Part shown: one piece after another, positions 2,281 through 17,109 of the stretch
How the letters are laid out: each line of letters begins with the position of its first letter
Numbering within the stretch: position 1 is the stretch's first letter
IMG/VR virus record: IMGVR_UViG_3300032167_000010
Length of the DNA: 64,000 nt
Strand: one strand, 5' to 3'
Origin: a virus
Taxonomy: Duplodnaviria > Heunggongvirae > Uroviricota > Caudoviricetes
The notes under the pieces: model-generated
What the model was told of the DNA's origin: nothing
Seen by the model: the letters and a program-made list of their open reading frames with translations, nothing else
Database searches by the model: none
Made by a program: the position numbers and the translations under genes

Positions 2281-2709
2281 ATGGATGAAATCGGAGCAAT
2301 TATCTTAGCAGTAGCTTTTATTGGTGGTATTATATTTTTAATAGGATACTGTACACTTGGAACAATTTTATATGATAGACTAGAAGACAAATATAGAAAA
2401 GAGTGGGAAGACGCCCATCCGAATGAACTTATTAGGATTAAAGAACTAGATAAAGAAATCGAAGCCCTTGAGCCGAAGCGACGACTATTACATACAATCA
2501 AGAAGCAGATTGATGAGATTACTGCGGAGATGAAGTATATAGCTAATACAGAAAATACTGAGCTAAAACTTCTTGGTTTAAAACGCATGGCAGAAACCCT
2601 TATAGAAGACGAGCGCCGTTGGTATAAACTACTCGGTGAACGTAATGATATATGTTATGCTTGGTCGGAATATATACAAAACAAAATGCCAAAATGGCTA
2701 AAATATTAA
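2281..2709 (+). CDS. membrane-anchored coiled-coil protein
   Basis: ORF track; N-terminal hydrophobic helix; SD TGGAGGA. Confidence 0.6.
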   Translation: MDEIGAIILAVAFIGGIIFLIGYCTLGTILYDRLEDKYRKEWEDAHPNELIRIKELDKEIEALEPKRRLLHTIKKQIDEITAEMKYIANTENTELKLLGLKRMAETLIEDERRWYKLLGERNDICYAWSEYIQNKMPKWLKY

Positions 2710-2737
2710 AAAATTTCAAAAATTTACCTAAAAACAG

Positions 2738-2766
2738 TTTACAAATTTTACCAAATATGATATAAT
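2738..2766 (+). promoter_or_regulatory. early-class promoter
   Basis: TTTACA 2738-2743; TGaTATAAT ending 2766; 17 bp spacer. Confidence 0.7.
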
Positions 2767-2798
2767 ATTTATAGTAAAAGTTTTGGAGGAAACTATAT

Positions 2799-3140
2799 AT
2801 GAAATTTTCAGATTTAGACAAAAGAGGTGTTGAATTATTTACAGAACACCACGAAGTTAAGTTTTACGAAATGATCTTATGCTTTGCTGCGGAAGAACTC
2901 TTCGAAGAAGATATTGATGAAATCGAATTAACAAATTATCAATTTAATAAACTATTAAATTGTATGACTTGTTATCTCGCTGATGACTATCACGTATCTC
3001 CTTGGCATGTTGCTGATGCACTCGTAGCATTAGTTAAGAAGCACGGAGCTGATACTGTTATTACAGACTGTAATGATGGAGGTAAGTTGCTAGAAACTGA
3101 ACTTTATAAGTTAGAGTCAGGAAGTTATGAAGGAGAATAA
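2799..3140 (+). CDS. hypothetical protein (113 aa)
   Basis: ORF track; SD TGGAGGA. Confidence 0.55.
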   Translation: MKFSDLDKRGVELFTEHHEVKFYEMILCFAAEELFEEDIDEIELTNYQFNKLLNCMTCYLADDYHVSPWHVADALVALVKKHGADTVITDCNDGGKLLETELYKLESGSYEGE

Positions 3141-3142
3141 GT

Positions 3143-3838
3143 ATGTTAAAAGTATATTGTGATGGAGCTTGCTCAGGAAATCCCGGTATGGGTGGTTGGG
3201 CATTTGTAATCCCTAAGTTAGAAGCAGAGGACTCTGGTTATTATGTAAAAACTACAAATAATCGTATGGAAATTACAGCAGTTATTGAAGCTCTTAATTA
3301 TGTTAATGAATACTTTTGGGGCGTTGACAAAGTAGAAATAATTACCGACAGTCAGTATGTAGTTAATACGATGACTAAAGGTTGGCAGAAGAAAAAGAAT
3401 CTAGACTTATGGGAAGCTCTTGATGAAATCCTCTATATGTTTAAAGAAGTCAAGTGGACTTGGGTTAAAGGACATGCCGATAATAAGCATAATCAAAGAT
3501 GTGATGAACTTGCTGTCGAAGCTTATAGAATATACCAACGTGCTAAAGAAGAGAAGGAAAGTCAAAAAGCTCACGAGGCCCTACATAAGTATGACGATTG
3601 TTATGATACAGAAATTCCACTTACTGCTACATCACCTCAGACAGCTGTAGCTATTGCGCTTACCGCACATAAGAGATATACTATTGGTAATCATACTTAT
3701 ACCATATTAGATTGTGCCGGCTTACCTGGTTTATATGTAATAGAGAAAGACTACTGTACACTTATCTACCACGGTACCTTTGACGATTGTATGTATGAAC
3801 TAAAAGACATAAAAAACCCAGACGCACTTCCTTTTTAA
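3143..3838 (+). CDS. rnh: ribonuclease H (RNase HI domain plus ~90 aa C-terminal extension)
   Basis: motifs CDGACSGNPG, TNNRMEI, TDSQYV, VKGHADNKHNQRCDELA match RNase HI catalytic core. Confidence 0.8.
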   Translation: MLKVYCDGACSGNPGMGGWAFVIPKLEAEDSGYYVKTTNNRMEITAVIEALNYVNEYFWGVDKVEIITDSQYVVNTMTKGWQKKKNLDLWEALDEILYMFKEVKWTWVKGHADNKHNQRCDELAVEAYRIYQRAKEEKESQKAHEALHKYDDCYDTEIPLTATSPQTAVAIALTAHKRYTIGNHTYTILDCAGLPGLYVIEKDYCTLIYHGTFDDCMYELKDIKNPDALPF

Positions 3839-3878
3839 AAATAATTTTAAAAATTTTTGAAAAAGCACGTTAAAACAG

Positions 3879-3907
3879 TTTACAAAATTGGAAAAATATG
3901 TTATAAT
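3879..3907 (+). promoter_or_regulatory. early-class promoter
   Basis: TTTACA 3879-3884; TATAAT 3902-3907; 17 bp spacer. Confidence 0.7.
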
Positions 3908-3939
3908 TATAAATGTAAATAAGTTTTGGAGGAAATATT

Positions 3940-4140
3940 ATGGAACTTAAACAATTTGCATTTGACGTATTGGGAGACTTTATGCCAGAAAGAGCTTATG
4001 AGATTACTGAAATGCGTGGTAAACCTGTTGTTATTGTTTTATACAAAGGTTTAGTGCAAGCGCCGAAAGAAATCATTTTTGACGAATGGAACAGAGCGAA
4101 AGCTGGAACTGAATTTGAAGAAGTAAGTCTTTATATGTAA
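3940..4140 (+). CDS. hypothetical protein (66 aa)
   Basis: ORF track; SD TGGAGGA. Confidence 0.55.
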   Translation: MELKQFAFDVLGDFMPERAYEITEMRGKPVVIVLYKGLVQAPKEIIFDEWNRAKAGTEFEEVSLYM

Positions 4141-4154
4141 GGAGGACCAAGAGT

Positions 4155-4547
4155 ATGTCTACACATTGTGGAATTGCAGTAAAAACAGAAAAAGGTTATA
4201 ACACTATCTACTGCCATCACGACGGATATGAAAGTTATATGTATCCTATGTTGGCTAAGAACTATGGTACAGAAGAAAGAGCTAGAGACTTAGTTAGCTT
4301 GGGTGATGCTTCTTGTATCTATGAAAGAATGGTGCCATCTAGAGAGTCTGGACATAGCTTCGACAATCCTGAGGATGGGGTTTGTGTTTTCTATCACAGA
4401 GACAGGGGCGAACGTTGGGAGCAGACTGCACCACAAGTTTTCACTAAGACTACAGTAGTAAATGATTTTTATTATGTGTATATTTTTGAAGACGGACAGT
4501 GGAACGCTTATAAGAACGGAAGAAAAATTATTGTGAGGGTAGACTAA
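4155..4547 (+). CDS. hypothetical protein (130 aa)
   Basis: ORF track; SD AAGGAGGA. Confidence 0.55.
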   Translation: MSTHCGIAVKTEKGYNTIYCHHDGYESYMYPMLAKNYGTEERARDLVSLGDASCIYERMVPSRESGHSFDNPEDGVCVFYHRDRGERWEQTAPQVFTKTTVVNDFYYVYIFEDGQWNAYKNGRKIIVRVD

Positions 4548-4700
4548 TGACTGAGCTCGAACTTATAAAACTTAAGAAAGAAATTTATTACTATTCTGAT
4601 ATCGAGCCAACTGACGAAGAAGCTTGGGAAATCTATGATATCATGCAAGAAAAGCCATACGCAGATTTGAGCGCTGTTGTTGCGGACTACTATGGATGTT
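4548..4700 (+). CDS. hypothetical small protein (51 aa)
   Basis: ORF missed by the 60-aa track cutoff; ATG overlaps upstream stop (TAATGA); ends just before next SD. Confidence 0.4.
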
Positions 4701-4713
4701 AAGGAGGATTAGT

Positions 4714-4941
4714 ATGAAAATTGAAATGACTACGTCGCCTGCAATACATATTAAAGCTATTGGGTACGAGAAGACTAATACAGAAGAAATCTTAAGTCTC
4801 GAGCTTCCTGATGGAATTCGTAAGTTTTACGGAGTGCCGAAGAACATTTATGACGAGCTCATCAAAGTCTTACATCGAGCTGACTTCTTGGTTAAGGTTT
4901 TAGCAAATAATTATAAATATGAAGATATAGTTTGTAATTAA
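4714..4941 (+). CDS. hypothetical protein
   Basis: ORF track 4696..4941; ATG 7 nt after AAGGAGGA. Confidence 0.5.
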   Translation: MKIEMTTSPAIHIKAIGYEKTNTEEILSLELPDGIRKFYGVPKNIYDELIKVLHRADFLVKVLANNYKYEDIVCN

Positions 4942-4979
4942 AAAATTTTTAAAAAAGTTTTAAAACAGGCTTAAAACAG

Positions 4980-5008
4980 TTTACAAATATTTAATTTTGT
5001 GGTATAAT
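4980..5008 (+). promoter_or_regulatory. early-class promoter
   Basis: TTTACA 4980-4985; TGgTATAAT ending 5008; 17 bp spacer. Confidence 0.7.
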
Positions 5009-5039
5009 ATATGTATAAAGATTGTTAAGGAGAGTACAT

Positions 5040-6338
5040 ATGAAAACACTTATTCACTTTAAGGAATTCTGCGACGAAATTACACAAAGTGCGAGCAGAA
5101 AATACAAACAAGAAGTATTAACTAAATATAAAGATGATGAAGTAATTAAGAAATATCTTAAGATTGCTTATGATCCTTATGAGGTATACGGAATTTCTAC
5201 TAAGAAGCTTTCTAAAGGTATTGCTGGAATGACCCTATACACTTTTGATACTATCCTCGAACTCTTTGATTACTTAAAAGTACATAACACAGGCAGAGAC
5301 TGCGATGTTAAATTATGTCAAGCAACATTAGAAGTTGTATATTCGGCGTTTGAGGGCTGTACTTTACTTCTTAAAGAACTTATCTGTAAAGATTTGAGTA
5401 TCGGGTGTGATGCGAAGACCATTAACTCTGTAATGCCTAATCTAATTCCTACGTTTGATGTACAACTCGCCAATAAATACTTCGATAAGCCTGATTACGT
5501 AGAAGGAAAGGAATTTGCTATTACTACGAAGATAGACGGCGGAAGAATTATTGCTATAAAGGAAAATGGCCAAGTTTCATTTTTCACTCGTGCTGGACAA
5601 AGATACGAAGGATTAGTTGATCTCGAAAAAGAAATGCTTGACCGAATTCCGGACAATTTCGTTTTTGATGGTGAGATTACTTTACTTGACTACAAGAGCT
5701 ATGATTCTAAAGACGCTTATAAGCAGGCAATGAAGATTACTAGAGCGGACGGCGAAAAGCATGGAGTTAAGATGCTTGTCTTCGATTGTATGTCTGCGGA
5801 AGAGTTTCGTAAGCAACACTGTCTGGCTGGTTGGTATGTAAGAAGAACGTTAGTAGAAAGTATTTTCAATCTTGCTGGAGACCTTACATATTTCGAACTT
5901 CTTCCAGTATTGTATCAAGGAACTGATACTTCTAAGATTACAGAATTGTTAGATGCCGAGATTGCTCGTGGCCAAGAAGGTATAATGATTAACATTTGCG
6001 ACGCGAAGTACGAATTCAAAAGAACGAACTCACTTCTTAAAGTAAAGAAGATGAATACCCTCGACCTTCAAATCATCGGCTTCGAAGAAGGATCTGGAAG
6101 ACTTGCCGGAACGTTAGGAGCTATCTTAGTTAGATACAAAGATGGAAACATCGTAAAAGTCGGCTCTGGATTTACGGACTGGTTGAGAGAAGAGATTTGG
6201 AAAAATCAAGGAAAGTATTTAGACACTATCTGCGAGATCCAGTATTTTGAAGAGACTACTAATCAAGACGGCGGAATTTCACTTCGCTTCCCTATCTTCA
6301 AAGATTTCAGAACTGACAAGCTTGAGGCCGACTTCTAA
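5040..6338 (+). CDS. lig: ATP-dependent DNA ligase
   Basis: motif I TKIDGGRII (KxDGxR), motif IV QEGIMI, motif V LLKVKK; ORF track 5022..6338 with ATG after AAGGAGAG. Confidence 0.8.
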   Translation: MKTLIHFKEFCDEITQSASRKYKQEVLTKYKDDEVIKKYLKIAYDPYEVYGISTKKLSKGIAGMTLYTFDTILELFDYLKVHNTGRDCDVKLCQATLEVVYSAFEGCTLLLKELICKDLSIGCDAKTINSVMPNLIPTFDVQLANKYFDKPDYVEGKEFAITTKIDGGRIIAIKENGQVSFFTRAGQRYEGLVDLEKEMLDRIPDNFVFDGEITLLDYKSYDSKDAYKQAMKITRADGEKHGVKMLVFDCMSAEEFRKQHCLAGWYVRRTLVESIFNLAGDLTYFELLPVLYQGTDTSKITELLDAEIARGQEGIMINICDAKYEFKRTNSLLKVKKMNTLDLQIIGFEEGSGRLAGTLGAILVRYKDGNIVKVGSGFTDWLREEIWKNQGKYLDTICEIQYFEETTNQDGGISLRFPIFKDFRTDKLEADF

Positions 6339-6356
6339 TAAATTATTAAATTAATA

Positions 6357-6390
6357 AAACCCGTGTATTAATCTGCACGGGTTTTTCTTT
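6357..6390 (+). terminator. rho-independent terminator
   Basis: hairpin aaacccgtg-N9-cacgggttt plus T-run. Confidence 0.65.
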
Positions 6391-6424
6391 ATAAAAAATT
6401 TTTGGAAAATTATGCCAAAAATAG

Positions 6425-6453
6425 TTTACAAAATTAAATTTTTATGTTATAAT
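6425..6453 (+). promoter_or_regulatory. early-class promoter
   Basis: TTTACA 6425-6430; TGtTATAAT ending 6453. Confidence 0.7.
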
Positions 6454-6484
6454 ATAAGTATAAAGCTTAAGTGAGGTACATATT

Positions 6485-6660
6485 ATGAAAAAGATTATTG
6501 TTGTTGTAGCAGACGGAAATGTTGAGACTGTGTTCACTAATGTTGATGAGGAAGTTGAACTTGAGATTGTAGACTTTGATTCTTGTTTTGATTCCCACGA
6601 TGAGCAAGAAGCTTTGGGAGATTACATTGACAGTCTTCGTGCGACAATGAAAGAAATTTA
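6485..6660 (+). CDS. hypothetical acidic small protein (58 aa)
   Basis: ORF below track cutoff; SD GTGAGGT 8 nt upstream. Confidence 0.45.
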
Positions 6661-6672
6661 AGGAGACTAGTT

Positions 6673-6864
6673 ATGAAAAGAGCGGAACAAGTAAGTCAAA
6701 AGAAAACTAAAAAAGAATCTTTGTCTTTTAATATAAAAGTAAATCCTACACATGTGCCTAATATAGAACATGTCCGTATGTGTGAGAAGTTTCCAGCGAG
6801 AACTTTTGAAGATAAGAGATTTAAGAAGCCGAAGCATAAAGAAAAATATTTAGAAAATTATTAA
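6673..6864 (+). CDS. hypothetical basic small protein
   Basis: ORF track; SD AAGGAGA. Confidence 0.5.
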   Translation: MKRAEQVSQKKTKKESLSFNIKVNPTHVPNIEHVRMCEKFPARTFEDKRFKKPKHKEKYLENY

Positions 6865-6882
6865 AAAGTGCTTAAAAATGCT

Positions 6883-6910
6883 TTACAAAATTGGTAAAAT
6901 GTGTTATAAT
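6883..6910 (+). promoter_or_regulatory. early-class promoter (16 bp spacer variant)
   Basis: TTTACA 6883-6888; TGtTATAAT ending 6910. Confidence 0.6.
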
Positions 6911-6949
6911 ATATACATAAAGAATAAATAAAGTTTGGAGGAAACTTTT

Positions 6950-7288
6950 ATGAAAAAAGACCTTAAGAAAACAAATTATGTAATCGTTATGGATTATAGC
7001 AAAGAAAGCTATTTAGCGGAGGCTTACTTATTAGGCTGGAACAATAACGAAGACTGGTTTGACACTGGTATTGACAGTCGCGATATTATGACTCCAGCAG
7101 GTAATGTTAAAAAGAATCATTGGGGTTTAATTGATGTTGACTCACACTCTAGTGCTTATGTAGGTGAAACTTTTGAAGACTGTGCGGACTATGCCGACGG
7201 TGCTAGAAAAGAAGGTTATGAATGTACTATCTGTCGTTTAGAAAAAGACGACGAAGGCAATATCAGACTTATACCAGTAGAAGACTAA
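6950..7288 (+). CDS. hypothetical protein
   Basis: ORF track 6935..7288; ATG 9 nt after GGAGG. Confidence 0.5.
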   Translation: MKKDLKKTNYVIVMDYSKESYLAEAYLLGWNNNEDWFDTGIDSRDIMTPAGNVKKNHWGLIDVDSHSSAYVGETFEDCADYADGARKEGYECTICRLEKDDEGNIRLIPVED

Positions 7289-7311
7289 TACATAATAAGG
7301 AGAATATAATT

Positions 7312-7728
7312 ATGGAAAAGAAAACAACTCGTAGTTCAGTAGAAATTTTAGCAGACATTGATAGATTAAAGCAAGAACTAAAACAAGCTTTAACTGCCGA
7401 AAAGAAAGCAGGTTATAGCGAATTACCTAAAGTAGTTTACATTTGGGATATGTACTTGAATGAAGAAGATAAGGGTAATTGGACTAGTGCTGAAATTTAT
7501 AACGGTCTATATTCCGGTGCAGTTTTTGAGACTGAAGAAGAAGCTTATGATGCTGGTTTGTTTCATCTTAGAGAATTAGAAGATGAAGGTGAATTGACTT
7601 ATGAAGATGAAGACGGCGAAGAATATGAAGCAGAGCCAGAAGATTATACAATCGATACTGTTGCAATTTCAGTTAAGGACGTGGATGAAGAAACTTTAGC
7701 AGGTTCTGGTTTAGAACATTTAATTTAA
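7312..7728 (+). CDS. hypothetical highly acidic protein
   Basis: ORF track 7222..7728; ATG after AAGGAGAA; Glu/Asp-rich C-terminal half. Confidence 0.55.
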   Translation: MEKKTTRSSVEILADIDRLKQELKQALTAEKKAGYSELPKVVYIWDMYLNEEDKGNWTSAEIYNGLYSGAVFETEEEAYDAGLFHLRELEDEGELTYEDEDGEEYEAEPEDYTIDTVAISVKDVDEETLAGSGLEHLI

Positions 7729-7742
7729 TAACGAGGTAGAAA

Positions 7743-8483
7743 ATGGATAAAGAATTATTTACAGAAATACTAGAGTCTCTAAAACAACGTAAGGATTTGT
7801 GCGAAAGTTTTCTAGGCACAGTACATACCACAGAAGATCTTAAACAACTTTCTCTCGCTCGAGCAGTAGAACTTAAGAAGTTTTGTGTAGAAGAAGAAGT
7901 AATCATGACTAAGATTGTTATGGTTGATCTCTACCATATTATTGGCATGGGACAGTTGTCGCCAACTCAGATGATGAAGTTTACATATTTAATGCAGGAC
8001 TACCTTTCTTACCGCCCAGTGATAAAAGCTCTTGCTCAGAAGTTAGACCGCATCGAAGAACTTCCTAAAATCCCTATTAAAACTAAATTTAAGTTAATGG
8101 GATTGGGCAACGCTACTCTAACTTATGGTGAAGGTGAAGTAGTTGATGAAGCTTCAATAGAAGACTACGATAAACTTAGGGAACAGAATATCCCTGAACC
8201 TCCCGCTGAACTTCCTTTTACAATCTCAGGCAATAAGATTAAAGTAGACCTTGGCAAGCTTGATGTGTTTGTTCAGTTAATGGAAATGTTGTTTAAGACA
8301 CCACTCTCTGTTGATAAACTTAAGAGTAAAATTAGTAGTCATGGTGAGTATATAGGAATTACTTGGACTGATATGTTCTATGAAGAAACTTGCGAAGGAC
8401 CTGCTGGTATTTTTGCAGTAGGCAATATGACATCTAACAGCACTCGTCAAAAGATTATGAGTTATGTTAATAAAAAATCTTAA
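7743..8483 (+). CDS. hypothetical protein (246 aa)
   Basis: ORF track; SD-like CGAGGTAG. Confidence 0.55.
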   Translation: MDKELFTEILESLKQRKDLCESFLGTVHTTEDLKQLSLARAVELKKFCVEEEVIMTKIVMVDLYHIIGMGQLSPTQMMKFTYLMQDYLSYRPVIKALAQKLDRIEELPKIPIKTKFKLMGLGNATLTYGEGEVVDEASIEDYDKLREQNIPEPPAELPFTISGNKIKVDLGKLDVFVQLMEMLFKTPLSVDKLKSKISSHGEYIGITWTDMFYEETCEGPAGIFAVGNMTSNSTRQKIMSYVNKKS

Positions 8484-8521
8484 AAATTTTTTAATTTTTT
8501 TGAAAAAGTATATAAAAACAG

Positions 8522-8550
8522 TTTACAAAACTGGTAAAATATGTTATAAT
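8522..8550 (+). promoter_or_regulatory. early-class promoter
   Basis: TTTACA 8522-8527; TGtTATAAT ending 8550. Confidence 0.7.
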
Positions 8551-8593
8551 ATAATTACAAAGTAAATAAACAAATTTTTTGGAGGAAAAATTT

Positions 8594-9106
8594 ATGAACA
8601 AAAAACGTTTTAAGAACATTATTGAACCTGCTAAGAACTTTACAAAGGCATCAGAAGTTTACAACTATCTAGAGTCTCTCGACGATGTAAACTTTATGGC
8701 AAGTGCAATCGCTTATGGATTTGGTTGTACTTATGATGACTACATAGAAGCAGAAGTACACAGTGCTTTATTAGAATTAGTACAAGACAAAGATAAGACT
8801 ATTGCCGAAGTTTATGACGAATACTGTGAGATGTATGCCGAAGAAGAAAGTGATAAAGACTATGATGACGATGAAACATTCAGCTGTTTTAATGGTTATG
8901 ACGGACAAGAACCTGAAGATATAATTGCTTGTGCGGTATTTGATGTATTAGACGCTGTAGATAAGTCTAAAACGGTTAAAGAGGGTTTCAAAGCATTCTT
9001 CCTTGAATATATGGTATATGACAGTGAATTAGATGAAGTTGTATATCTTTTAGACTTAGATGAATACGACATCGAAGACGACTCTGACGAATATTTTAAT
9101 AAATAA
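8594..9106 (+). CDS. hypothetical highly acidic protein
   Basis: ORF track 8579..9106; ATG 8 nt after GGAGG; Asp/Glu-rich. Confidence 0.55.
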   Translation: MNKKRFKNIIEPAKNFTKASEVYNYLESLDDVNFMASAIAYGFGCTYDDYIEAEVHSALLELVQDKDKTIAEVYDEYCEMYAEEESDKDYDDDETFSCFNGYDGQEPEDIIACAVFDVLDAVDKSKTVKEGFKAFFLEYMVYDSELDEVVYLLDLDEYDIEDDSDEYFNK

Positions 9107-9111
9107 CAATA

Positions 9112-9150
9112 GAAATAACCTATCATAAAAGGTAGGTTATTTTTTTTATT
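9112..9150 (+). terminator. rho-independent terminator
   Basis: hairpin aataacctatc-N7-gtaggttatt plus long T-run. Confidence 0.6.
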
Positions 9151-9175
9151 TTTTTTGAAAAGTGCTTAAAAACAG

Positions 9176-9204
9176 TTTACAAATTACGGTAAATGTGATA
9201 TAAT
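9176..9204 (+). promoter_or_regulatory. early-class promoter
   Basis: TTTACA 9176-9181; TGtgaTATAAT region ending 9204; 17 bp spacer. Confidence 0.7.
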
Positions 9205-9238
9205 ATATGTAAGATAAAACGAGGAGGACGTAAGTCTT

Positions 9239-9562
9239 ATGGAAATTATTAAAGTAGAAACAAAAGAACAATTAAAGGCACTCAATGACTGTTCTGCGAT
9301 GACGTGGGAAGGTTTAAGAGAAGAAGACTTTGGTGTTGCATTAAGTATGTGCGGTGCTGAAGGTGCTAAAGGTTATTGCACATTAGGTAAAGTAATGAAC
9401 AAACTTTGTAAGTTAACCGGTTCTAATGCTTATCCTGATGACTTGACTATTTTTAGTATTGATAAGTTTAAGGGACTTGCTATTACGGTAGGTGCTCGCT
9501 GGATGGATGATGTCATTTCGAATAACGCTCGCAGAGAAGGCTATTATCCTTTTAGAAAATAA
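9239..9562 (+). CDS. hypothetical protein (107 aa)
   Basis: ORF track; SD CGAGGAGGA. Confidence 0.55.
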   Translation: MEIIKVETKEQLKALNDCSAMTWEGLREEDFGVALSMCGAEGAKGYCTLGKVMNKLCKLTGSNAYPDDLTIFSIDKFKGLAITVGARWMDDVISNNARREGYYPFRK

Positions 9563-9579
9563 TTGGAGGAATACATATT

Positions 9580-9976
9580 ATGAAAAAAACTTATACTATT
9601 ACATTTAAGGCAGAACTTACTGAAGAGGATGTTAAAGCGATGCAAGGTTGTTTCTATCAAGCAATGAACGAAAGTATGGAAATTTCTGAAGTTTGGGGGG
9701 TTAGAAATTACTGAAGATAAGTTTAGTGCAGAACCAGATAACGGTTTTTATCATATTCACGACTGTGTTGACGCTTTAATGAACTGTGAGAGCATTGATG
9801 AAGTTAACAACTTGTTAGATAACTTCCCTCATAAATTTGGTGAATGGTGGGTAGACACTATTGGTGAAGGGGAAGACGCTTACTACGAAGTCACCAACGA
9901 GTGGTGGGATTCTGTAAACGAAGAACTTTGTAGTAATCAATACCAACTTGACATCGAGGTAGAGGAGGAAGACTAA
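9580..9976 (+). CDS. hypothetical acidic protein encoded in two overlapping frames joined at a G6 tract (+1 frameshift or homopolymer length error)
   Basis: frame 1 ORF 9580..9714 (good SD) overlaps the frame +1 reading frame open from 9668 to 9976; downstream ATG 9779 has no SD; G6 at 9695-9700. Confidence 0.45.
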
Positions 9977-9984
9977 AATTATTT

Positions 9985-9994
9985 GCTAAATTAT
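9985..9994 (+). promoter_or_regulatory. late-type promoter motif tttGCTAAATTATTT (copy 1)
   Basis: GCTAAATTAT 36 nt upstream of ATG 10023. Confidence 0.5.
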
Positions 9995-10022
9995 TTGATT
10001 AACTTCAAAGGAGACCATACTT

Positions 10023-10562
10023 ATGGCAATAATAGAAAACTTTAGTACATTATCACAAGAAGAACTTAAAGAGTTTGTTGATAAACTTATAAAAACTATT
10101 AACACAGAGCAGATCTTCGCAGATAATGCTGAACTTACATTGGATACTCAATGTGCTATAGAGACAAGTGATTTTGATGGCAATCTTTATATCCCACTTG
10201 AGTGTGCTATTGATGTTGAGCGTTTTGCTAAATGGGATTGTGGTAGTCCTGAAGAACGCTTTGATATGAATAGTGCCTATAATCTAAATTTTGATAACTC
10301 TATTATAGAAGATGCAAAAAAATCATTTAAGACGCTTTCTACAACACTTGAAGGTTATAACGTAAGTTTAGAGTTAGATGATGTAGATGACGACGGATAT
10401 GAACAAGTAGAAGTAGATAGCTATTCTGAAGCAGATGCTGGTATTGGTGAGTATGAGTTCTGGGGGCATAAGAGCTACGACTCTCAGCCTTACTGTGAAG
10501 TTGAAGGTACTATAACTAAATCATGTACTTGTTATATAACACTTTGTGTTGAGCCTATTTAA
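10023..10562 (+). CDS. hypothetical highly acidic protein (179 aa)
   Basis: ORF track; SD AAAGGAGA; preceded by GCTAAATTAT motif. Confidence 0.6.
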   Translation: MAIIENFSTLSQEELKEFVDKLIKTINTEQIFADNAELTLDTQCAIETSDFDGNLYIPLECAIDVERFAKWDCGSPEERFDMNSAYNLNFDNSIIEDAKKSFKTLSTTLEGYNVSLELDDVDDDGYEQVEVDSYSEADAGIGEYEFWGHKSYDSQPYCEVEGTITKSCTCYITLCVEPI

Positions 10563-10580
10563 TAATTAAAATTAACTAAT

Positions 10581-10612
10581 AAACCCTGAGGCATATGTCT
10601 TGGGGTTTTTAT
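10581..10612 (+). terminator. putative terminator
   Basis: aaaccc..ggggttttt stem with T-run. Confidence 0.45.
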
Positions 10613-10655
10613 TTTATAAAAAATTAAAAAAATTTTCAAAAAGTTTGTAAAAACA

Positions 10656-10684
10656 GTTTACAAAATTGGAAAAATATGTTATAA
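10656..10684 (+). promoter_or_regulatory. early-class promoter
   Basis: TTTACA 10656-10661; TGtTATAAT ending 10684. Confidence 0.7.
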
Positions 10685-10721
10685 TATTGTATGTAAATAA
10701 GATTTGGAGGTTAGTTAGAAT

Positions 10722-10904
10722 ATGCCAGAACCTAAATATATACCTAAAAAAAGAACAGCACTAGATGGTAAAACTTGGTGGTGTGTTTATGACACTGTGA
10801 AAGACGCTTGGAGTACGATAATTTATTTTGGTAAGTATAAAACTAAAAAAGCTTGCCAAATAGATATTGACTTTTTCACAAAGGAGGATAAGAAGAATGA
10901 CTAA
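10722..10904 (+). CDS. hypothetical protein (60 aa)
   Basis: ORF track; SD TGGAGGT. Confidence 0.5.
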   Translation: MPEPKYIPKKRTALDGKTWWCVYDTVKDAWSTIIYFGKYKTKKACQIDIDFFTKEDKKND

Positions 10905-11229
10905 AACAGAATTTGAAGAAATGACATTAGACGAACTTTTAGAATGGGCTAATGAAAATATCAATGATATTACATACGAAGATACTTTGATTGAATTTGC
11001 AAAGCATAAGATTGATGACGATAATATTTATATGGCCATACATATCCTCGGAGCAATCTATAATAGCGAAGAAGCTTATAACAATTACTACTTATATGAC
11101 TACTCTATGGGAACTTTGGAAACTCCGACACCTATTACTTGTAAAGAAGATTTAGAACCTTACATAGACTTTGATGATGAAGAGGACTGTGAAATATATA
11201 CCTGTTGGGATTTAGACGAGGAGGAATGA
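10897..11229 (+). CDS. hypothetical acidic protein
   Basis: ORF track 10867..11229; ATG after AAGGAGGA. Confidence 0.5.
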   Translation: MTKTEFEEMTLDELLEWANENINDITYEDTLIEFAKHKIDDDNIYMAIHILGAIYNSEEAYNNYYLYDYSMGTLETPTPITCKEDLEPYIDFDDEEDCEIYTCWDLDEEE

Positions 11230-11231
11230 TT

Positions 11232-11441
11232 ATGATTAAGTGTGTATATTTGATTAAATGTGAACGAGATGCGTATGACCCTAATGATATCACCGCTACT
11301 TACACGGATATAGTAGGTTTTGTAGACGACGTTGAAGTTGCAAAAGCATACTGTCTTAAAAGAAATGATGGTTGGGAATACGGTCCTTACTCTTATGAAT
11401 GTGTGAGCGAACTTACTATAAAAGATATGGAGGAAAACTAA
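11232..11441 (+). CDS. hypothetical protein
   Basis: ORF track 11205..11441; ATG 7 nt after GAGGAGG. Confidence 0.5.
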   Translation: MIKCVYLIKCERDAYDPNDITATYTDIVGFVDDVEVAKAYCLKRNDGWEYGPYSYECVSELTIKDMEEN

Positions 11442-11854
11442 TGAGAGACACAACTAATAAAATTTTAGAAATGATCGATGAAGGATTACTTGATGCTAGA
11501 GATGTTGCTCAGATGTGTCTAAAGTATATGAGTGAAGACGCTGTAGCAGATATGGCTGAGGCTAATGAGGTCTTCTTTGAAGAGGAAGAAGATGTTGATG
11601 AAGACTTCGATGAAGAAGCACCTGAATGTCCTTACATAGTTTTCGCTGGGAAGTCTTGTAGCGAAGAAAACCCAATGTCTGCGTGGCCAACTGAAGAAAG
11701 TGCTATCGAAGCGGGAAAAGCAATATTGGCTAGTAAGTCTATTTTCTATAAGTATGTTGAAGTAGTGCTTATGCCGGAAGATGATATTGATACCAACGAA
11801 GTTATTTGGTGGGGAGAAAATGTTGATACGACCAACGTAGGCCAACAGAATTAA
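11441..11854 (+). CDS. hypothetical highly acidic protein
   Basis: ORF track 11399..11854; ATG after TGGAGGAA; EEEEDVDEDFDEE tract. Confidence 0.55.
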   Translation: MRDTTNKILEMIDEGLLDARDVAQMCLKYMSEDAVADMAEANEVFFEEEEDVDEDFDEEAPECPYIVFAGKSCSEENPMSAWPTEESAIEAGKAILASKSIFYKYVEVVLMPEDDIDTNEVIWWGENVDTTNVGQQN

Positions 11855-11930
11855 CCCTGTGGGATTAGTTTAAGTCTAGTTTTAGTATTTTATCATCACT
11901 AGATTAACTAGCCCCAGAGGGCTAAATAAA
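11855..11930 (+). other. long imperfect hairpin followed by variant late motif GCTAAATAAA
   Basis: ccctgtggg(11855-63) pairs with cccagaggg(11913-21), 49-nt enclosed region with inner ctag repeats; GCTAAATAAA 11921-11930. Confidence 0.35.
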
Positions 11931-11962
11931 GACTCAAATACATTATAAATAGGAGAACAAAT

Positions 11963-12190
11963 ATGAAAAAAGAATGCACTGGAAATCTTAAAGAGATTAT
12001 TTTAGCAATGATCGAAAACGAAACGGACTGTTGTGAAGTTACAAATACTGTCGGTGACATTTCTGTAACTGTAGACATTACTATTACTAAGATAGTAGAT
12101 AAAGGTGAAGTAGTCTACGATGCTTACGAAGATAAAGATGATCCTTACAGCGACGAGATTGATGACTACGAGCCTCGAATTTTACATTAA
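11963..12190 (+). CDS. hypothetical acidic protein (75 aa)
   Basis: ORF track; SD ATAGGAGAA. Confidence 0.5.
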   Translation: MKKECTGNLKEIILAMIENETDCCEVTNTVGDISVTVDITITKIVDKGEVVYDAYEDKDDPYSDEIDDYEPRILH

Positions 12191-12229
12191 AATTTTTTAA
12201 AAAATTTTTAAAAAAGTGGCTAAAAACAG

Positions 12230-12258
12230 TTTACAAATCCGGTAAAATATGTTATAAT
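12230..12258 (+). promoter_or_regulatory. early-class promoter
   Basis: TTTACA 12230-12235; TGtTATAAT ending 12258. Confidence 0.7.
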
Positions 12259-12293
12259 ATAATTACAAAGATTGATTAAGGAGACCGCTTGTT

Positions 12294-12485
12294 ATGAAAA
12301 AGTATGGTGTTTACAGAGTATTTATTGAAAACGAAAAAGTTGACAAATGGCTTTGGGGAACTTGGGAAGACCCTCACAGAGCAAATGAAGTCGGACTTGA
12401 AATTCAAGGAGACGGTTATTTTACAGAAGTAATTGAATTTGAAGACCAAGATCCACCTAAACATATCTTTTATCATGCAAACTAA
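12294..12485 (+). CDS. hypothetical protein
   Basis: ORF track; SD TAAGGAGA. Confidence 0.55.
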   Translation: MKKYGVYRVFIENEKVDKWLWGTWEDPHRANEVGLEIQGDGYFTEVIEFEDQDPPKHIFYHAN

Positions 12486-12504
12486 ATACTTGGAGGGTTA
12501 ATTT

Positions 12505-12720
12505 ATGGAAAACGAAAAATATCCTATTAAAGAAGAATGGCAAGAATACTACGATGTATTAGAAGGAATTAGAAGAACTGGCGTCGTGAATATGTGGGGA
12601 GCTTCTCCCTACTTAAAAGAGTTTTGCCCAGAGCTATCAGAAAAAGAATCTCAAGAAATTCTTTGCAACTGGATACATAACTACAACGAGTTAAACAAAA
12701 AGTTTGGCTGGCAAAAATAA
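12505..12720 (+). CDS. hypothetical protein
   Basis: ORF track; SD TGGAGGG. Confidence 0.55.
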   Translation: MENEKYPIKEEWQEYYDVLEGIRRTGVVNMWGASPYLKEFCPELSEKESQEILCNWIHNYNELNKKFGWQK

Positions 12721-12734
12721 AGGAGTACATACGT

Positions 12735-13139
12735 ATGAACTATAATGACACTATTAAAGATTTAACTGCTTGGCTCGAAGACTTAAAGAGATCTGCTAAG
12801 CTTGATGAACCTTTTACCATCTCTTGGTTTAAAGGAACTAAAAATTATCCATTTTCGATTATCGGAGGCTGGACGAAAGGCTTCTCTGATGACTATGCCG
12901 ACTTATTATGCGTTAGTGAATCAGAATCTGAGTATGCTATGTGTGTAAAGATCGTTATCAACGAAGGATCTTATGCGTATACTGACTACGAAGCTATGAA
13001 CATGCCGTATGATGAAGAATCCGGTAATGTTGATGACACTGAAGTCGCTCTTGAGTGGGATGACAACTCTGAAAGTCTCGCTACGTGGTTATTAACGGAG
13101 TGGGAAAGGATTATGAAAGAGCACGGAGAGGAAATCTAA
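12735..13139 (+). CDS. hypothetical protein (134 aa)
   Basis: ORF track; SD AAGGAGTA. Confidence 0.55.
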   Translation: MNYNDTIKDLTAWLEDLKRSAKLDEPFTISWFKGTKNYPFSIIGGWTKGFSDDYADLLCVSESESEYAMCVKIVINEGSYAYTDYEAMNMPYDEESGNVDDTEVALEWDDNSESLATWLLTEWERIMKEHGEEI

Positions 13140-13303
13140 TGTTGTATACCCTAGAATTAACTGAAGAAGAAATAGACTTCATCAAGGAAAGATGCTCACG
13201 TAAGGCGGCGAGATTAGAAGAATCTCATTTAGAAGATACTCCCTGCTATAAACTATCGTGGGACATCATGATCAAGATTATGAATATTAAAAAGGAGAAT
13301 TAG
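13139..13303 (+). CDS. hypothetical protein
   Basis: ORF track 13085..13303; ATG after GGAGAGG overlapping upstream stop. Confidence 0.45.
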   Translation: MLYTLELTEEEIDFIKERCSRKAARLEESHLEDTPCYKLSWDIMIKIMNIKKEN

Positions 13304-13304
13304 T

Positions 13305-13493
13305 ATGGATATATTTAGTCAACGCAGTAATGAACTTCAAAAAGCGTATGAAGAAGGAATAATCCACGGTGTAGAAACCGTGTGTGCTGAACTAACTGAA
13401 ACTTTTAAAGATATTCCAATGTGGGGATCTGTAGCAGTATATCATATCAATAAGTTGTTAGAAAACTTTAATAAGGAGAAAGACGCCAGATGA
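13305..13493 (+). CDS. hypothetical protein
   Basis: ORF track; SD AAAGGAGAA. Confidence 0.5.
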   Translation: MDIFSQRSNELQKAYEEGIIHGVETVCAELTETFKDIPMWGSVAVYHINKLLENFNKEKDAR

Positions 13494-13738
13494 GAAAACC
13501 TGAAATAATCGAAACTTCCGAAATTTCGCCATGTCCGTTTTGTGGTAATACCAAACTTAAGGTAGATAGTAAGCACAATGGTCATTGGTCTACTGTTGGA
13601 ACACACTCTGCTACTGTAAGATGCACTAAGTGTCATGCCAGAGGTCCGACTGCATCGTGTAAAGTATCCCCTGAACTTTATGGTGCAGATGATGCTACTA
13701 AACAGAAAGCAATAGAACTTTGGAATAAGAGGATTTAA
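13490..13738 (+). CDS. Lar-like zinc-finger protein (possible restriction alleviation)
   Basis: SPCPFCGN...CTKCHARG double Cys pairs typical of the Lar family; ATGA overlap with upstream gene. Confidence 0.45.
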   Translation: MRKPEIIETSEISPCPFCGNTKLKVDSKHNGHWSTVGTHSATVRCTKCHARGPTASCKVSPELYGADDATKQKAIELWNKRI

Positions 13739-13740
13739 CT

Positions 13741-14049
13741 ATGAAAAAAGAAATTAGTTTTTGGAAAACACAGTGGTTTAGTATGGTGGTAGCTTTCATT
13801 GCTATTGCTACGGGATTCGTTTATCTTATCGGAGCAGTATCAATAGTAGAACCAGTACTTTCATTATTCTGGTTTTTAATCTCCGAAGTTTGGGTCATTA
13901 CAGCTTTAGTGGACTATAATAACCTTCGTATTAAGAAGATACGAGATAGAATAGAAGTACTTGAGTACTGCGCAATTACAGACATAGTAGAAGAGTCTCC
14001 TAAACACTATGTGGTAAAGAGACGACTCGGTCCAGATAAGGAGGACTAA
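13741..14049 (+). CDS. small membrane protein (2 TM)
   Basis: ORF track; hydrophobic helices. Confidence 0.55.
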   Translation: MKKEISFWKTQWFSMVVAFIAIATGFVYLIGAVSIVEPVLSLFWFLISEVWVITALVDYNNLRIKKIRDRIEVLEYCAITDIVEESPKHYVVKRRLGPDKED

Positions 14050-14051
14050 CT

Positions 14052-14258
14052 ATGGGAAAAACACTTACTCAAAGAATCTATGAAACTCCACTAGATATTA
14101 AAGATGCTCTTTATAACAGTGGATACAAAGCCGGCAAATCAGCAATGATAAGTGAAATAAAAGATATTCTAGAAGACTGCTCTCAGACTAATGGTATAAT
14201 GTTCGTTAGAGCGCTTCAAGATCTTATAGAAAAATACGGAGAGAAAGATGCTAGATAA
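14052..14258 (+). CDS. hypothetical protein
   Basis: ORF track; SD AAGGAGGA. Confidence 0.5.
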   Translation: MGKTLTQRIYETPLDIKDALYNSGYKAGKSAMISEIKDILEDCSQTNGIMFVRALQDLIEKYGEKDAR

Positions 14259-14484
14259 AATTTATCTTTATGGTGCAAGGGATACCACAACAGGAAAGTT
14301 AGTATCAGATATTACTAATCCTAAAAGAAAGTATTGGGATAAGAAAGGTAATGCCGAGAAAGCAATCAGCGATTACAATCGAGGTTATGCCAACAGAAAA
14401 CTTCCGTATTCCGCTAACAAAGGCGAACATGGGATTATCGAATTAGTTATCTTTGAATTAGTAGAGGTGCCAAATGGAAAATAA
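14248..14484 (+). CDS. hypothetical protein
   Basis: ORF track; SD GGAGAGA. Confidence 0.5.
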   Translation: MLDKIYLYGARDTTTGKLVSDITNPKRKYWDKKGNAEKAISDYNRGYANRKLPYSANKGEHGIIELVIFELVEVPNGK

Positions 14485-14698
14485 AGAAATAAAGTATTGG
14501 ATTATTAAGAATCCTGACACTGGACTTTACTACAGAGGTAAGGGAGAAAACCGTTGGGGTAAGTACTACAATCAAGCGTCTATCTTTAGAATTAGAGGGC
14601 AAGTAGAAGAATCCTGTGAGTGGATTAATAGATGCCATCGTAATGGTGAGAAGGCTGAAATTGTAGAAATTAAAATTATAGAAATTAGTAATAATTAA
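14474..14698 (+). CDS. hypothetical protein
   Basis: ORF track; SD GAGGTG. Confidence 0.5.
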   Translation: MENKEIKYWIIKNPDTGLYYRGKGENRWGKYYNQASIFRIRGQVEESCEWINRCHRNGEKAEIVEIKIIEISNN

Positions 14699-14707
14699 CA
14701 AAAAGAA

Positions 14708-14722
14708 ATCGTATAATATAAT
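14708..14722 (+). promoter_or_regulatory. middle-class extended -10 promoter (cgTATAATATAAT)
   Basis: TATAAT 14712-14717 with no -35 at the expected spacing. Confidence 0.35.
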
Positions 14723-14745
14723 ATAAAACATTGGAGGATTTAATT

Positions 14746-14928
14746 ATGAGTATTTATGGTAAATATGAAACTTATAAAATTGTATACTATCCTAAAATTC
14801 AAAATAACGGTCAAATGGGAGTTGCTCTTGTAGAAGCTGGAGACTGGTCGCACGCAATGACTCTTTTCCAAGAACAATATGCCGGACAATTCCACACTGT
14901 AAAGAGCTGTGAAAAATTACTCGGCTAA
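14746..14928 (+). CDS. hypothetical protein
   Basis: ORF track 14731..14928; ATG after TGGAGGA. Confidence 0.5.
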   Translation: MSIYGKYETYKIVYYPKIQNNGQMGVALVEAGDWSHAMTLFQEQYAGQFHTVKSCEKLLG

Positions 14929-14957
14929 TTTAGAAAATTACAGCAAAATGTAAAAAG

Positions 14958-14976
14958 TTTTACTGTATAATATAAT
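14958..14976 (+). promoter_or_regulatory. middle-class extended -10 promoter (cTGTATAATATAAT)
   Basis: TGTATAAT 14964-14971. Confidence 0.45.
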
Positions 14977-14977
14977 A

Positions 14978-15128
14978 GAAAATGCCGCGGGGAATAACTA
15001 CTTTTGATATATCTCTTATCGTTTTCTTTTGTAAGTGTTCCTTCATTCTCCTCCTTAAACATAAACATTCTCCGTGGCTTCCACATAATTATTTAAAAAG
15101 ACCTGCTGTTTTAGTGGGTCTTTTTTCT
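14978..15128 (+). ncRNA. candidate ~150-nt small RNA (promoter + terminator unit without ORF)
   Basis: starts just downstream of TGTATAAT; ends at hairpin gacctgctgttttagtgggtc + T6 (15098-15128); internal ccttcattCTCCTCCttaaac anti-SD-like motif; 5' gccgcgg pairs with 3' ccgtggc. Confidence 0.4.
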
Positions 15129-15175
15129 ACCATTTATTGTATACTATAGTATTATGAAATTTGGAGGATTAACAA

Positions 15176-15364
15176 ATGAGTAAGTACACTACATATTATA
15201 ATAGTAGACAGACGATGTATAGAGATCTAGCGACTAATTGGATGAAGTACGTAGAAGAACATGGGATTACGAAACGTCAGATGCACGGGATGTCTATCTT
15301 CTTTACTAATATCGCTAGAAGATTCGGATTAATGAAAGACTTCCGAGACATCGGAGTTATTTAA
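15176..15364 (+). CDS. hypothetical protein
   Basis: ORF track; SD TGGAGGA. Confidence 0.5.
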   Translation: MSKYTTYYNSRQTMYRDLATNWMKYVEEHGITKRQMHGMSIFFTNIARRFGLMKDFRDIGVI

Positions 15365-15391
15365 TTTTTTTCAAGAACTTCTTAAAAACAG

Positions 15392-15420
15392 TTTACAAAT
15401 TCTACCAAATGTGATATAAT
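15392..15420 (+). promoter_or_regulatory. early-class promoter
   Basis: TTTACA 15392-15397; TGaTATAAT ending 15420. Confidence 0.7.
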
Positions 15421-15453
15421 ATAGGTAGAATAAAAGTTAAGGAGAAATTACCG

Positions 15454-15828
15454 ATGCTTGAAATTATTAAAGAACGTAAAGTAAGAATCGAAAAAGAATA
15501 CTACATTAACTTTGACTGTAAGGCTGACGATAGTTGCGGATTTATTTTCCCTGCTAATCCAGATGAAACTCTTGCGTTGGATAAGATGCCGGAAGAAGCG
15601 AGGGCTAACTATTATACCTGTGAAATGAACGTAGACTTATACAATCGTTGGTTTGAAGAACGCGAAGTAAAAGTAGTTGACTATGCTGTGGGAAAATGTA
15701 GATGTGGTGCCAAAGTCGAACTAACTGACGATGCTTGGATGGGAGCAGTACAGTGTGAGAAGTGTGGTAAGTGGTACAACATCTACGGACAAGAACTCAG
15801 AGACCCGAAGTATTGGGAGGAGGATTAA
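15454..15828 (+). CDS. Zn-ribbon protein
   Basis: ORF track; CRCG..17..CEKCG; SD AAGGAGAA. Confidence 0.55.
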   Translation: MLEIIKERKVRIEKEYYINFDCKADDSCGFIFPANPDETLALDKMPEEARANYYTCEMNVDLYNRWFEEREVKVVDYAVGKCRCGAKVELTDDAWMGAVQCEKCGKWYNIYGQELRDPKYWEED

Positions 15829-15829
15829 G

Positions 15830-16081
15830 ATGAATAGATACCTTATCTTTTCTATTACCATAGCCGAAGATGATCTAAAACATCTTCCTGAGAAATCATG
15901 GTACAATCATAACTACTATGAAATAACCGACTGGAACGACTATCTAATTCCCGAGAAGTGTAATATACTCTTTGAGGAGTGTGAAGATGATGGACCCGGT
16001 GCTTACTATCACTTGGGATACTTTGAGGGTGAACAATTTAAGTCTATGTTTACTTGGTATGAAGATGAAGCATTGATTTAA
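15830..16081 (+). CDS. hypothetical protein
   Basis: ORF track 15731..16081; ATG after GGGAGGAGGA. Confidence 0.5.
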   Translation: MNRYLIFSITIAEDDLKHLPEKSWYNHNYYEITDWNDYLIPEKCNILFEECEDDGPGAYYHLGYFEGEQFKSMFTWYEDEALI

Positions 16082-16120
16082 AAATAATTTAAAAATTTTT
16101 AAAAAACTACTCAAAAACAG

Positions 16121-16149
16121 TTTACAAAATTTGGTAAACATGATATAAT
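16121..16149 (+). promoter_or_regulatory. early-class promoter
   Basis: TTTACA 16121-16126; TGaTATAAT ending 16149. Confidence 0.7.
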
Positions 16150-16182
16150 ATATATAAAGAATAAATAAAAGAGGTACATATT

Positions 16183-16428
16183 ATGCAGTCAACAAGAATC
16201 GCAGATACAAATGAAATTAACAGAAGGTGCAGTGAAGTCTTTGATATGCAAGAAGGCGACTTCGTTTGGGGAATCTTCCTAACTGATGACGGTCAATTGT
16301 TAGTTGAAATGGAAGAGATTACAGAAGACGGTGATAGTTCTGGCATCTTTAACTTTGAACCTAATATGGAAGAAAGACCTGAGGCACTCGCTTACTTGAT
16401 GGGCGAGAGAAACGATTTTAACGATTAA
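16183..16428 (+). CDS. hypothetical acidic protein
   Basis: ORF track; SD AAGAGGTA. Confidence 0.55.
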   Translation: MQSTRIADTNEINRRCSEVFDMQEGDFVWGIFLTDDGQLLVEMEEITEDGDSSGIFNFEPNMEERPEALAYLMGERNDFND

Positions 16429-16468
16429 AAAATAATTAAAAAATTTTTGAAAAAGTAGTTAAAAACAG

Positions 16469-16497
16469 TTTACAAATCTCACCAAATATGTTATAAT
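16469..16497 (+). promoter_or_regulatory. early-class promoter
   Basis: TTTACA 16469-16474; TGtTATAAT ending 16497. Confidence 0.7.
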
Positions 16498-16533
16498 ATA
16501 TGTAATGAATAAAGTTAATAAGGAGAACATATT

Positions 16534-16752
16534 ATGTTTTATTACAAAGTAGAATCAAGTCATTGGCCAAACAATTTAGAATTCAAATCTAAAATTAAAA
16601 TGGAAGTAGGACAATGTTTCCGAATTACTTCTCACGATGGTTTCAAATCGTATCCAACTAGATTTAAGGTATTAAGTGTTTCAGATACTCCTGAATATAC
16701 TGGAACTGTTGTTGAAATTCTAGATGCCGATTTAACTGTTGAACAGTTCTAA
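16534..16752 (+). CDS. hypothetical protein
   Basis: ORF track; SD AAGGAGAA. Confidence 0.55.
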   Translation: MFYYKVESSHWPNNLEFKSKIKMEVGQCFRITSHDGFKSYPTRFKVLSVSDTPEYTGTVVEILDADLTVEQF

Positions 16753-16818
16753 CTTTAATCACACTTATCCAAACTCGTTTTGGTTAATCTAATTTTCATA
16801 TTTTCAACTTTCGGAAAA

Positions 16819-16852
16819 AGACTGATAGAGAAAATCTATTGGTCTTTTTTCT
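16819..16852 (+). terminator. rho-independent terminator
   Basis: agactgatag-N7-ctattggtct (two G-U wobbles) plus T6. Confidence 0.55.
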
Positions 16853-16860
16853 TTTACTTA

Positions 16861-16889: not shown

Positions 16890-16916
16890 TATCTAGAAAG
16901 TTGGAGGTGAAAGTAG

Positions 16917-17105: not shown

Positions 17106-17109
17106 AAGA

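Follow-up and report, generated by a model that had tools for sequence, protein, structure and literature searches.

The gene at positions 9580-9976 of a 64,000-nucleotide stretch of viral DNA (the whole of the stretch analysed, hereafter referred to as the window) is present in three allelic forms that segregate among otherwise identical genomes and constitute an on/off polymorphism. The form carried by the window is very probably a genuine and recent frameshift allele, generated by replication slippage, of an accessory early gene that codes for a two-module protein in an uncultivated phage of about 222 kb, whose host probably belongs to the Bacillota. The extra G that disrupts the reading frame would have been introduced by slipped-strand mispairing at a run of five Gs during DNA replication, while a sister lineage broke the same gene independently by the extension of a run of seven As to eight. 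For the purpose of annotation, the region is best regarded as one gene with a natural frameshift allele, and not as two genes, an error to be silently corrected or a recoding site.

The window sequence was examined for the features reported in a preliminary description of this DNA, and the G6 run, the Shine-Dalgarno sequence and the 44-codon frame-0 ORF were all found where they had been placed (Table 1), the product of the latter ending in ...ISEVWGVRNY. The +1 frame is likewise open from 9668 up to a stop codon at 9974-9976, and the earliest ATG, GTG or TTG in it is the ATG at 9779, which is preceded by no Shine-Dalgarno-like sequence. Removal of one G from the run gives exactly the 131-aa protein that had been put forward, and the same sequence is available in public data (P0110), in which the proposed fusion peptide ...EVWG-LEITEDK... 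has an exact match. The run spans codons W39 (TGG) and G40 (GGG) and reaches the first base of V41. Within a three-gene unit (9239-9562, 9580-9976 and 10023-10562), the gene occupies the middle position, and its surroundings consist of a long series of small acidic ORFs on the same strand, typical of a phage early region.

Near-identical promoter-like repeats of the form AACAGTTTACAAAA(T/C)TGG(A/T)AAAATATGTTATAAT, i.e. TTTACA-17 nt-TATAAT with a TG, were observed at about 3877-3910, at 8522-8550, 9176-9204 and 10657-10685, and at about 12241, heading successive short early operons. They look like a set of strong early promoters, which would be recognised by the host sigma-A. The ends of Logan contigs at 3878, 8533 and 10679 were considered as possible marks of polymorphism and were rejected, as these ends fall within the repeated promoter element (copies at 3878, 8533, 10656 and 12241).

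Table 1. Features predicted in the window (positions are those of the window)
Position	Strand	Feature	Remarks
5040-6338		ATP-dependent DNA ligase	
9176..9204	+	Promoter-like site that heads the three genes; TTTACA-17 nt-TATAAT, the -10 preceded by TG	11/12 matches
9239..9562	+	Upstream gene of the unit, 107 aa, without known family	Invariant, 18 contigs
9565..9571	+	Shine-Dalgarno sequence GGAGGAA, 8 nt 5' of ATG 9580	From sequence; conserved in relatives
9580..9714	+	Frame-0 part, 44-aa product P0108: N-terminal module residues 1-40 and out-of-frame tail VRNY	
9583..9589	+	Poly-A tract A7 (ATG AAA AAA ACT)	A8 in L001-L004, where the ATG served by the Shine-Dalgarno sequence is out of frame
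9695..9700	+	Poly-G tract G6, codons W39-G40 (TGG GGG)	G5 in the intact allele
9701..9976	+	+1-frame remainder LEITEDKF...EVEEED and stop codon, well-predicted C-terminal domain	Bases identical to the intact allele
10023..10562	+	Third gene of the unit, 179 aa, preceded by a separate Shine-Dalgarno sequence	Invariant, 18 contigs
10581..10608	+	Terminator-like hairpin and T run, end of the unit	
13490-13738		Lar-like restriction-alleviation protein	Converted from L003 gene calls, offset -360
17867-18283		Peptide deformylase	Converted from L003 gene calls, offset -360
18295-18585		YodL-like protein	Converted from L003 gene calls, offset -360
28111-28914		Dam-type D12 N6-adenine methyltransferase	

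Homopolymers are depleted overall in the window, in which 4 G runs of at least 5 nt are observed against about 17 expected from the base composition and 9 A runs of at least 7 nt against about 32. The G6 run is the sole G run of at least 6 nt in the 64 kb, GGG is the rarest glycine codon of the phage (5% of Gly), and the run is not a product of chance. The gene also has another variable tract, absent from the preliminary description, namely the A7 run at 9583-9589, which is one of the nine such A runs in the window and is represented by A8 in another assembly of the phage. Two repeats of at least 6 nt, G6 and A7, are found inside the ORF, the ON state of the G tract being only G5.

The intact allele (A7+G5), coding for the 131-aa protein P0110, was found on 18 public contigs and the window allele (A7+G6), coding for the 44-aa product, on 7, which come from JGI, ENA and Logan assemblies. 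The third allele (A8+G5; L001-L004) is carried by 2 contigs of 223 kb, namely ENA ERZ27248351 k141_2448477 and JGI 3300024268 Ga0257090_10000168. The sum of these counts (27) equals the number of index blocks in which an invariant gene is listed, and that of an independent tally of 13, 4 and 1 (18) equals the count for the invariant neighbouring genes, the in-frame allele being present on 18 of the 27 contigs by the former and on 13 of the 18 by the latter. The contigs are derived from apparent sibling samples of one study, with consecutive JGI and SRA accession numbers, and the allele counts overstate the number of independent samples because the same samples are probably present in more than one assembly collection.

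Apart from the two tracts, the genomes compared at this locus are the same. Three contigs with the intact allele (L073, L074 and L075) otherwise match the window without a mismatch over 19,976, 6,802 and 2,147 bp, respectively, and the A8+G5 contigs have 0 mismatches over 19,977 bp, with two gaps only, one at the A tract and the other at the G tract. The A7+G6 contigs for which the DNA was read, JGI 3300024303 Ga0257089_10000424 and Logan SRR7032241_12257 (L067 and L068), are 100% identical to the window, and the Logan contig is common to 3 samples. Repeat-length variants of one base (G5/G6 and A7/A8) thus occur among otherwise isogenic genomes, and the natural on/off slippage tract suggested in the preliminary description holds as a polymorphism, its status as a dedicated switch being doubtful, as discussed below. 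In all the alleles, the C-terminal part of the coding sequence agrees base for base, and the break is therefore recent. When IMG/VR was scanned for exact patterns of the junction with G4-G8, no match was obtained, nor was any obtained in searches for the locus in GenBank phages with megablast and blastn, or with tblastn using the fusion.

A wider comparison of the window with ENA ERZ27248446, which carries the ON allele, over about 60.8 kb (positions 1-19976, 21440-41596 and 42078-62779) revealed 0 substitutions and 2 indels, both of which are homopolymer frameshifts inside ORFs. One of them is the G6/G5 difference described above, while the other is a G4/G3 difference at 31576-31579 in an SPFH/Band-7 gene (31440-32591) and the sole difference from the window in 20,157 bp. 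The SPFH gene is intact in the window (383 aa) and on 12 of 18 contigs; on 6 of 18, the change from G4 to G3 at TGGGGT splits it into products of 51 aa (P0167) and 338 aa (P0166). This indel falls again at a Trp-Gly codon pair, as in the gene at 9580-9976, and, occurring at a mere G4, it looks like an ordinary indel mutation and not a dedicated switch. The haplotypes observed were G6 with intact SPFH (the window), ON with the SPFH frameshift (ERZ27248446) and A8 with the SPFH frameshift (ERZ27248351). As these fit a clonal genealogy, each mutation possibly had one origin, and the G6 and A8 breaks, being on different SPFH backgrounds, are independent. Longer runs, including A8 at 17145, T9 at 24384 and several T8, are invariant between the compared genomes, which points to selection on particular genes and not to mutation rate alone.

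Comparison with related genomes indicates that the gene is normally a single ORF. A search with the one-G-deleted fusion identified 107 metagenomic homologues, none of which has a Pfam domain, and the full-length homologues (123-143 aa) are contiguous across ...(E/D)(V/I/L)W(G/D)LE.... No copy split at the VWG/LE junction was found among 62 related loci examined with tblastn, nor were halves found there in adjacent overlapping frames. The nearest other phages, L069 (P0002) and L071 (P0001), have A7+G5 with the ORF intact, and A7+G5 is therefore the ancestral state of this small clade. L072 has A7+G4, and the more distant relatives have ATG AAG AAA ACT, in which the A run is broken, and TGG GGA/GGT CTT, all of them in frame. 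Neither tract is a feature of the family.

The homologue P0001 was modelled with AlphaFold from 85 aligned sequences. The model consists of an N-terminal beta-alpha-beta module (residues 4-46, pLDDT 53-73) and a C-terminal alpha-alpha-beta-beta-beta domain (residues 59-126, pLDDT >90), the confidence being good for the C-domain only. G40 is located within strand beta-2 of the N-module. As judged by this model, the intact allele codes for a 131-aa acidic protein with a predicted beta-alpha-beta N-module (about residues 1-46) and a predicted alpha-alpha-beta-beta-beta C-domain (about residues 56-126). Each half can stand alone, since ORFs with the N-module only (47-62 aa; L027, L033, L035 and L043) and others with the C-domain only (76-84 aa; for example P0072 and P0087) occur naturally. 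The N-only ORF overlaps the start of an unrelated downstream MSK(E/R)I(V/I)K(I/V)LMERDG... gene in L027, L035 and L043, and the L033 contig ends just after it; in P0105-P0107, the N-module is joined to a different C-terminus.

The N-module, of about 45 aa (MKKTYxITFKAEL...MNESMEI..VWGLE), is thus seen alone, attached to unrelated C-termini of at least two kinds, or as a gene of its own beside a C-domain gene (loci L027, L033, L035, L043, L005, L011 and L038-L042; proteins P0105-P0107), and it appears to be a mobile building block. No Pfam or PHROG family was found for the N-module, and the protein as a whole had no match in Pfam or PHROGs. A PDB profile search gave a best E-value of 0.08, Foldseek against BFVD gave no match at E <=0.001, and a protein scan of IMG/VR detected only distant relatives with the N- or the C-module alone.

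The probable products of the broken alleles were deduced from their reading frames. In the G6 allele, translation from the strong Shine-Dalgarno sequence and ATG is predicted to yield a 44-aa peptide, consisting of residues 1-40 and VRNY, with beta-2 cut short. The C-domain is out of frame and effectively off, because initiation at ATG 9779 would skip the conserved FYHIHDCVDAL segment. Full-length protein would be made from G6 only through unprogrammed, low-level slippage of the ribosome or the RNA polymerase. Such low-level restoration of the frame is possible on the ribosome either by re-pairing of tRNA-Gly or by a slip of tRNA-Trp while the rare GGG waits in the A site, and the peptide EVWGLEITEDK would result from either route. 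In the A8+G5 allele, the ATG served by the Shine-Dalgarno sequence is out of frame and leads to MKKNLYYYI and a stop codon, and the protein called on these contigs (P0004, 111 aa) starts at M21 and has 100% identity to the fusion. The C-domain is in frame here with the weak internal start M21 (GAGG 11 nt upstream), with loss of the first strand of the N-module.

The source of the window is an uncultivated phage of about 222 kb with 34% GC. Its DNA ligase is closest to the ligases of Geobacillus, Clostridioides, Brevibacillus and Bacillus phages (37-43% identity), and a Bacillota host is therefore probable. The accessory genes in the window (Table 1) are typical of large Bacillota phages, and no tRNA genes were detected within the window. 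A protein of 556/558 aa with a weak collagen-repeat match is encoded at 56111-57787 and adjoins putative tail-fibre-like genes (57800-62251), beyond which lies the start of a very large ORF with an LRR_5 domain (2,813 aa in L078). The collagen-like gene was considered as a variable locus and rejected, since its DNA is identical in L078, where gene callers start 2 codons later (556 aa); the exact 558-aa translation is missing from the collection owing to this later called start, and no tandem repeat was found in the gene. The exact 124-aa product of 15454-15828 is present on 16 contigs, against 18 for the neighbouring genes, which may reflect another variant allele or contig ends. The 222,952-bp JGI contig Ga0257090_10000168 (L004) has its end 177 bp 5' of M21, the called start of the frameshifted gene, or about 117 bp upstream of the ATG that follows the Shine-Dalgarno sequence, while an ENA assembly of seemingly the same phage continues through. 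One contig of 444,602 bp, about twice the genome, also carries the gene, and these two observations together suggest a circularly permuted or concatemeric assembly.

Several other explanations of the broken frame were weighed. That the run is really G5 and was lengthened by a sequencing or assembly artefact, as had been allowed for in the preliminary description, is the least probable of them. Homopolymer indels are a classic type of error and the window differs from the ON allele by a single base; however, G6 is found on 7 contigs from three pipelines, and the longer A8, T8 and T9 runs, equally exposed to error, are free of indels over the approximately 60 kb compared. Contig names such as k141_... 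also suggest short-read de Bruijn assemblies. Sequencing error is thus not supported, because G6 recurs across pipelines and samples and the longer runs are unchanged. It is nearly as improbable that the gene is normally expressed from two frames by a programmed +1 frameshift of the prfB type, which had been proposed as well, or by programmed transcriptional slippage at the G run. A GGG-bound tRNA-Gly can shift one base downstream in G6 and pair again without a mismatch, the rare GGG could cause a pause, and both broken alleles lie on slippery runs and need the same +1 correction. However, no fused homologue for which DNA was examined has the two-frame layout, most of them having TGG GGA/GGT CTT, and the form that requires a frameshift is the minority allele within the phage. 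The frame-0 codons that follow the run are common ones (GTT 41% of Val, AGA 58% of Arg), no Shine-Dalgarno-like element is located 3-10 nt upstream except the run itself, and the downstream 90 nt folds no better than shuffled sequence (z = -0.48). Efficient transcriptional slippage takes runs of roughly 9 A or T or more, and G6 and A7 are below the lengths at which it is efficient. A conserved programmed frameshift is therefore not supported, as the distant relatives are without either tract and are all in frame.

A dedicated phase-variable gene, in which both the tracts are selected as high-frequency reversible switches, is conceivable but doubtful. By means of such a gene, the population would hedge its output among the complete protein, only the N-module (A7+G6), a protein truncated at the N-terminus but with the C-domain (A8+G5, from M21), or nothing. 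The presence of two variable repeats in a single 396-bp gene, the rarity of such runs elsewhere in the window, and the use of GGG both here and in L069 and L071, in spite of its being the rarest glycine codon, are consistent with this possibility. So are the natural occurrence of N-only ORFs and of several C-only ORFs, P0072 and P0087 among them, and the precedents of T2 agt, with two A repeats and escape mutants of plus or minus one base (one of them revertible), and of the A6 run of T4 rIIA. However, the tracts are short and are not conserved in the family, most members of which have AAG AAA and GGA/GGT, and neither homoplasy nor reversion is seen among the alleles. The co-segregating SPFH frameshift at G4 is also not switch-like, and, in contrast to the natural N-only ORFs, the G6 product is without the end of beta-2 (LEITED replaced by VRNY). 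A two-switch contingency locus, in which the poly-A and the poly-G tracts would independently and reversibly select the full fusion, the N-module or the C-domain form as a hedge against a defence that senses one of the modules, is unlikely; if true, it would represent bet-hedging caught in nature, with frameshift slips as the sole differences in the approximately 60 kb compared.

A recent slippage allele thus remains the preferred explanation, and the data suggest that selection drove the broken alleles to consensus. This is favoured because the differences over about 60 kb are only indels that break ORFs, two independent events struck this one gene, and longer runs remained constant. The two tracts may also mutate at a raised rate and reversibly. 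The alleles would behave as an on/off switch of the contingency-locus type, and loss of the full-length protein would have been favoured in some populations, for example where the protein is sensed by a host defence or is costly in the host. Against this explanation, a single event per allele accounts for all the observations, with no homoplasy to prove repeated switching, and G5 and A7 are short in comparison with classical bacterial contingency tracts.

The locus provides an example, from the field and from public metagenome assemblies as opposed to laboratory lysates, of homopolymer slippage alleles that have reached consensus. Two tracts broke the same gene and a third slip broke the SPFH gene, with no point substitutions in about 60 kb, a pattern which supports the recent proposal that phages use, or at least suffer, short-repeat frameshifts as the fastest means of gene inactivation. 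In addition, a widely distributed family of modular proteins is brought forward as a candidate target of host defence or of another strong selective agent. The finding is chiefly useful for the correct annotation of the gene and as a clean case, taken from the field, of a clonal population of jumbo phages in which slippage alleles segregate.

Contingency loci have been described in phages, where frameshifts of plus or minus one base in two A repeats accounted for 10 of 15 escape mutants of T2 agt, the A6 run of T4 rIIA was found to behave like the agt repeats, and repeats of at least 6 nt were found to be widespread in phage genomes (Gomez, Barrick & Waters, bioRxiv 10.1101/2025.10.21.683753). 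An elevated rate, reversion and a fitness trade-off (TgvAB vs McrBC; RexAB) were measured in the laboratory for agt and rIIA (bioRxiv 10.1101/2025.10.21.683753). The gene described here resembles both in having mononucleotide runs of at least 6 nt in a non-essential phage ORF, where slippage by one base causes a knockout, and in the segregation of the variants among otherwise isogenic phages. It also resembles agt in having more than one variable run, there two A repeats and here A7/8 and G5/6. Unlike agt and rIIA, it is represented by fixed consensus alleles from metagenome assemblies only, one of its tracts is poly-G, and it belongs to an uncultivated, low-GC phage of about 222 kb with a probable Bacillota host.

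Hypermutable polyG tracts are attributed to Campylobacter phages in work cited in PMC10877375 (Sorensen et al. 2021, Cell Rep 35:109214). As in that system, a poly-G run in a phage ORF is involved here, and variation in its length switches the frame on or off. The Campylobacter phage tracts are reportedly about G9-G13 in length, located in receptor-binding or structural genes and conserved across a phage genus, whereas the G5/G6 tract belongs to an accessory gene of the early region and is restricted to a single small clade. In the +1 frameshift of the prfB type, the shift takes place at CUU UGA C with an upstream Shine-Dalgarno sequence. Here, too, a +1 shift would restore the product, and the site allows re-pairing of the P-site tRNA; unlike in prfB, the site is not conserved, the A site has neither a stop nor a rare codon, no Shine-Dalgarno sequence is correctly spaced and the in-frame allele is in the majority. 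Phages are also known to escape host defence by loss-of-function mutation of the phage gene that is sensed. As in such escape, of which agt and TgvAB are an example, independent frameshift alleles of one accessory gene have reached consensus in different populations while the sequence was otherwise unchanged, and defence escape is proposed as the possible driver in the present case. The mechanism is not new, and the locus adds a new natural case to a kind that is already known.
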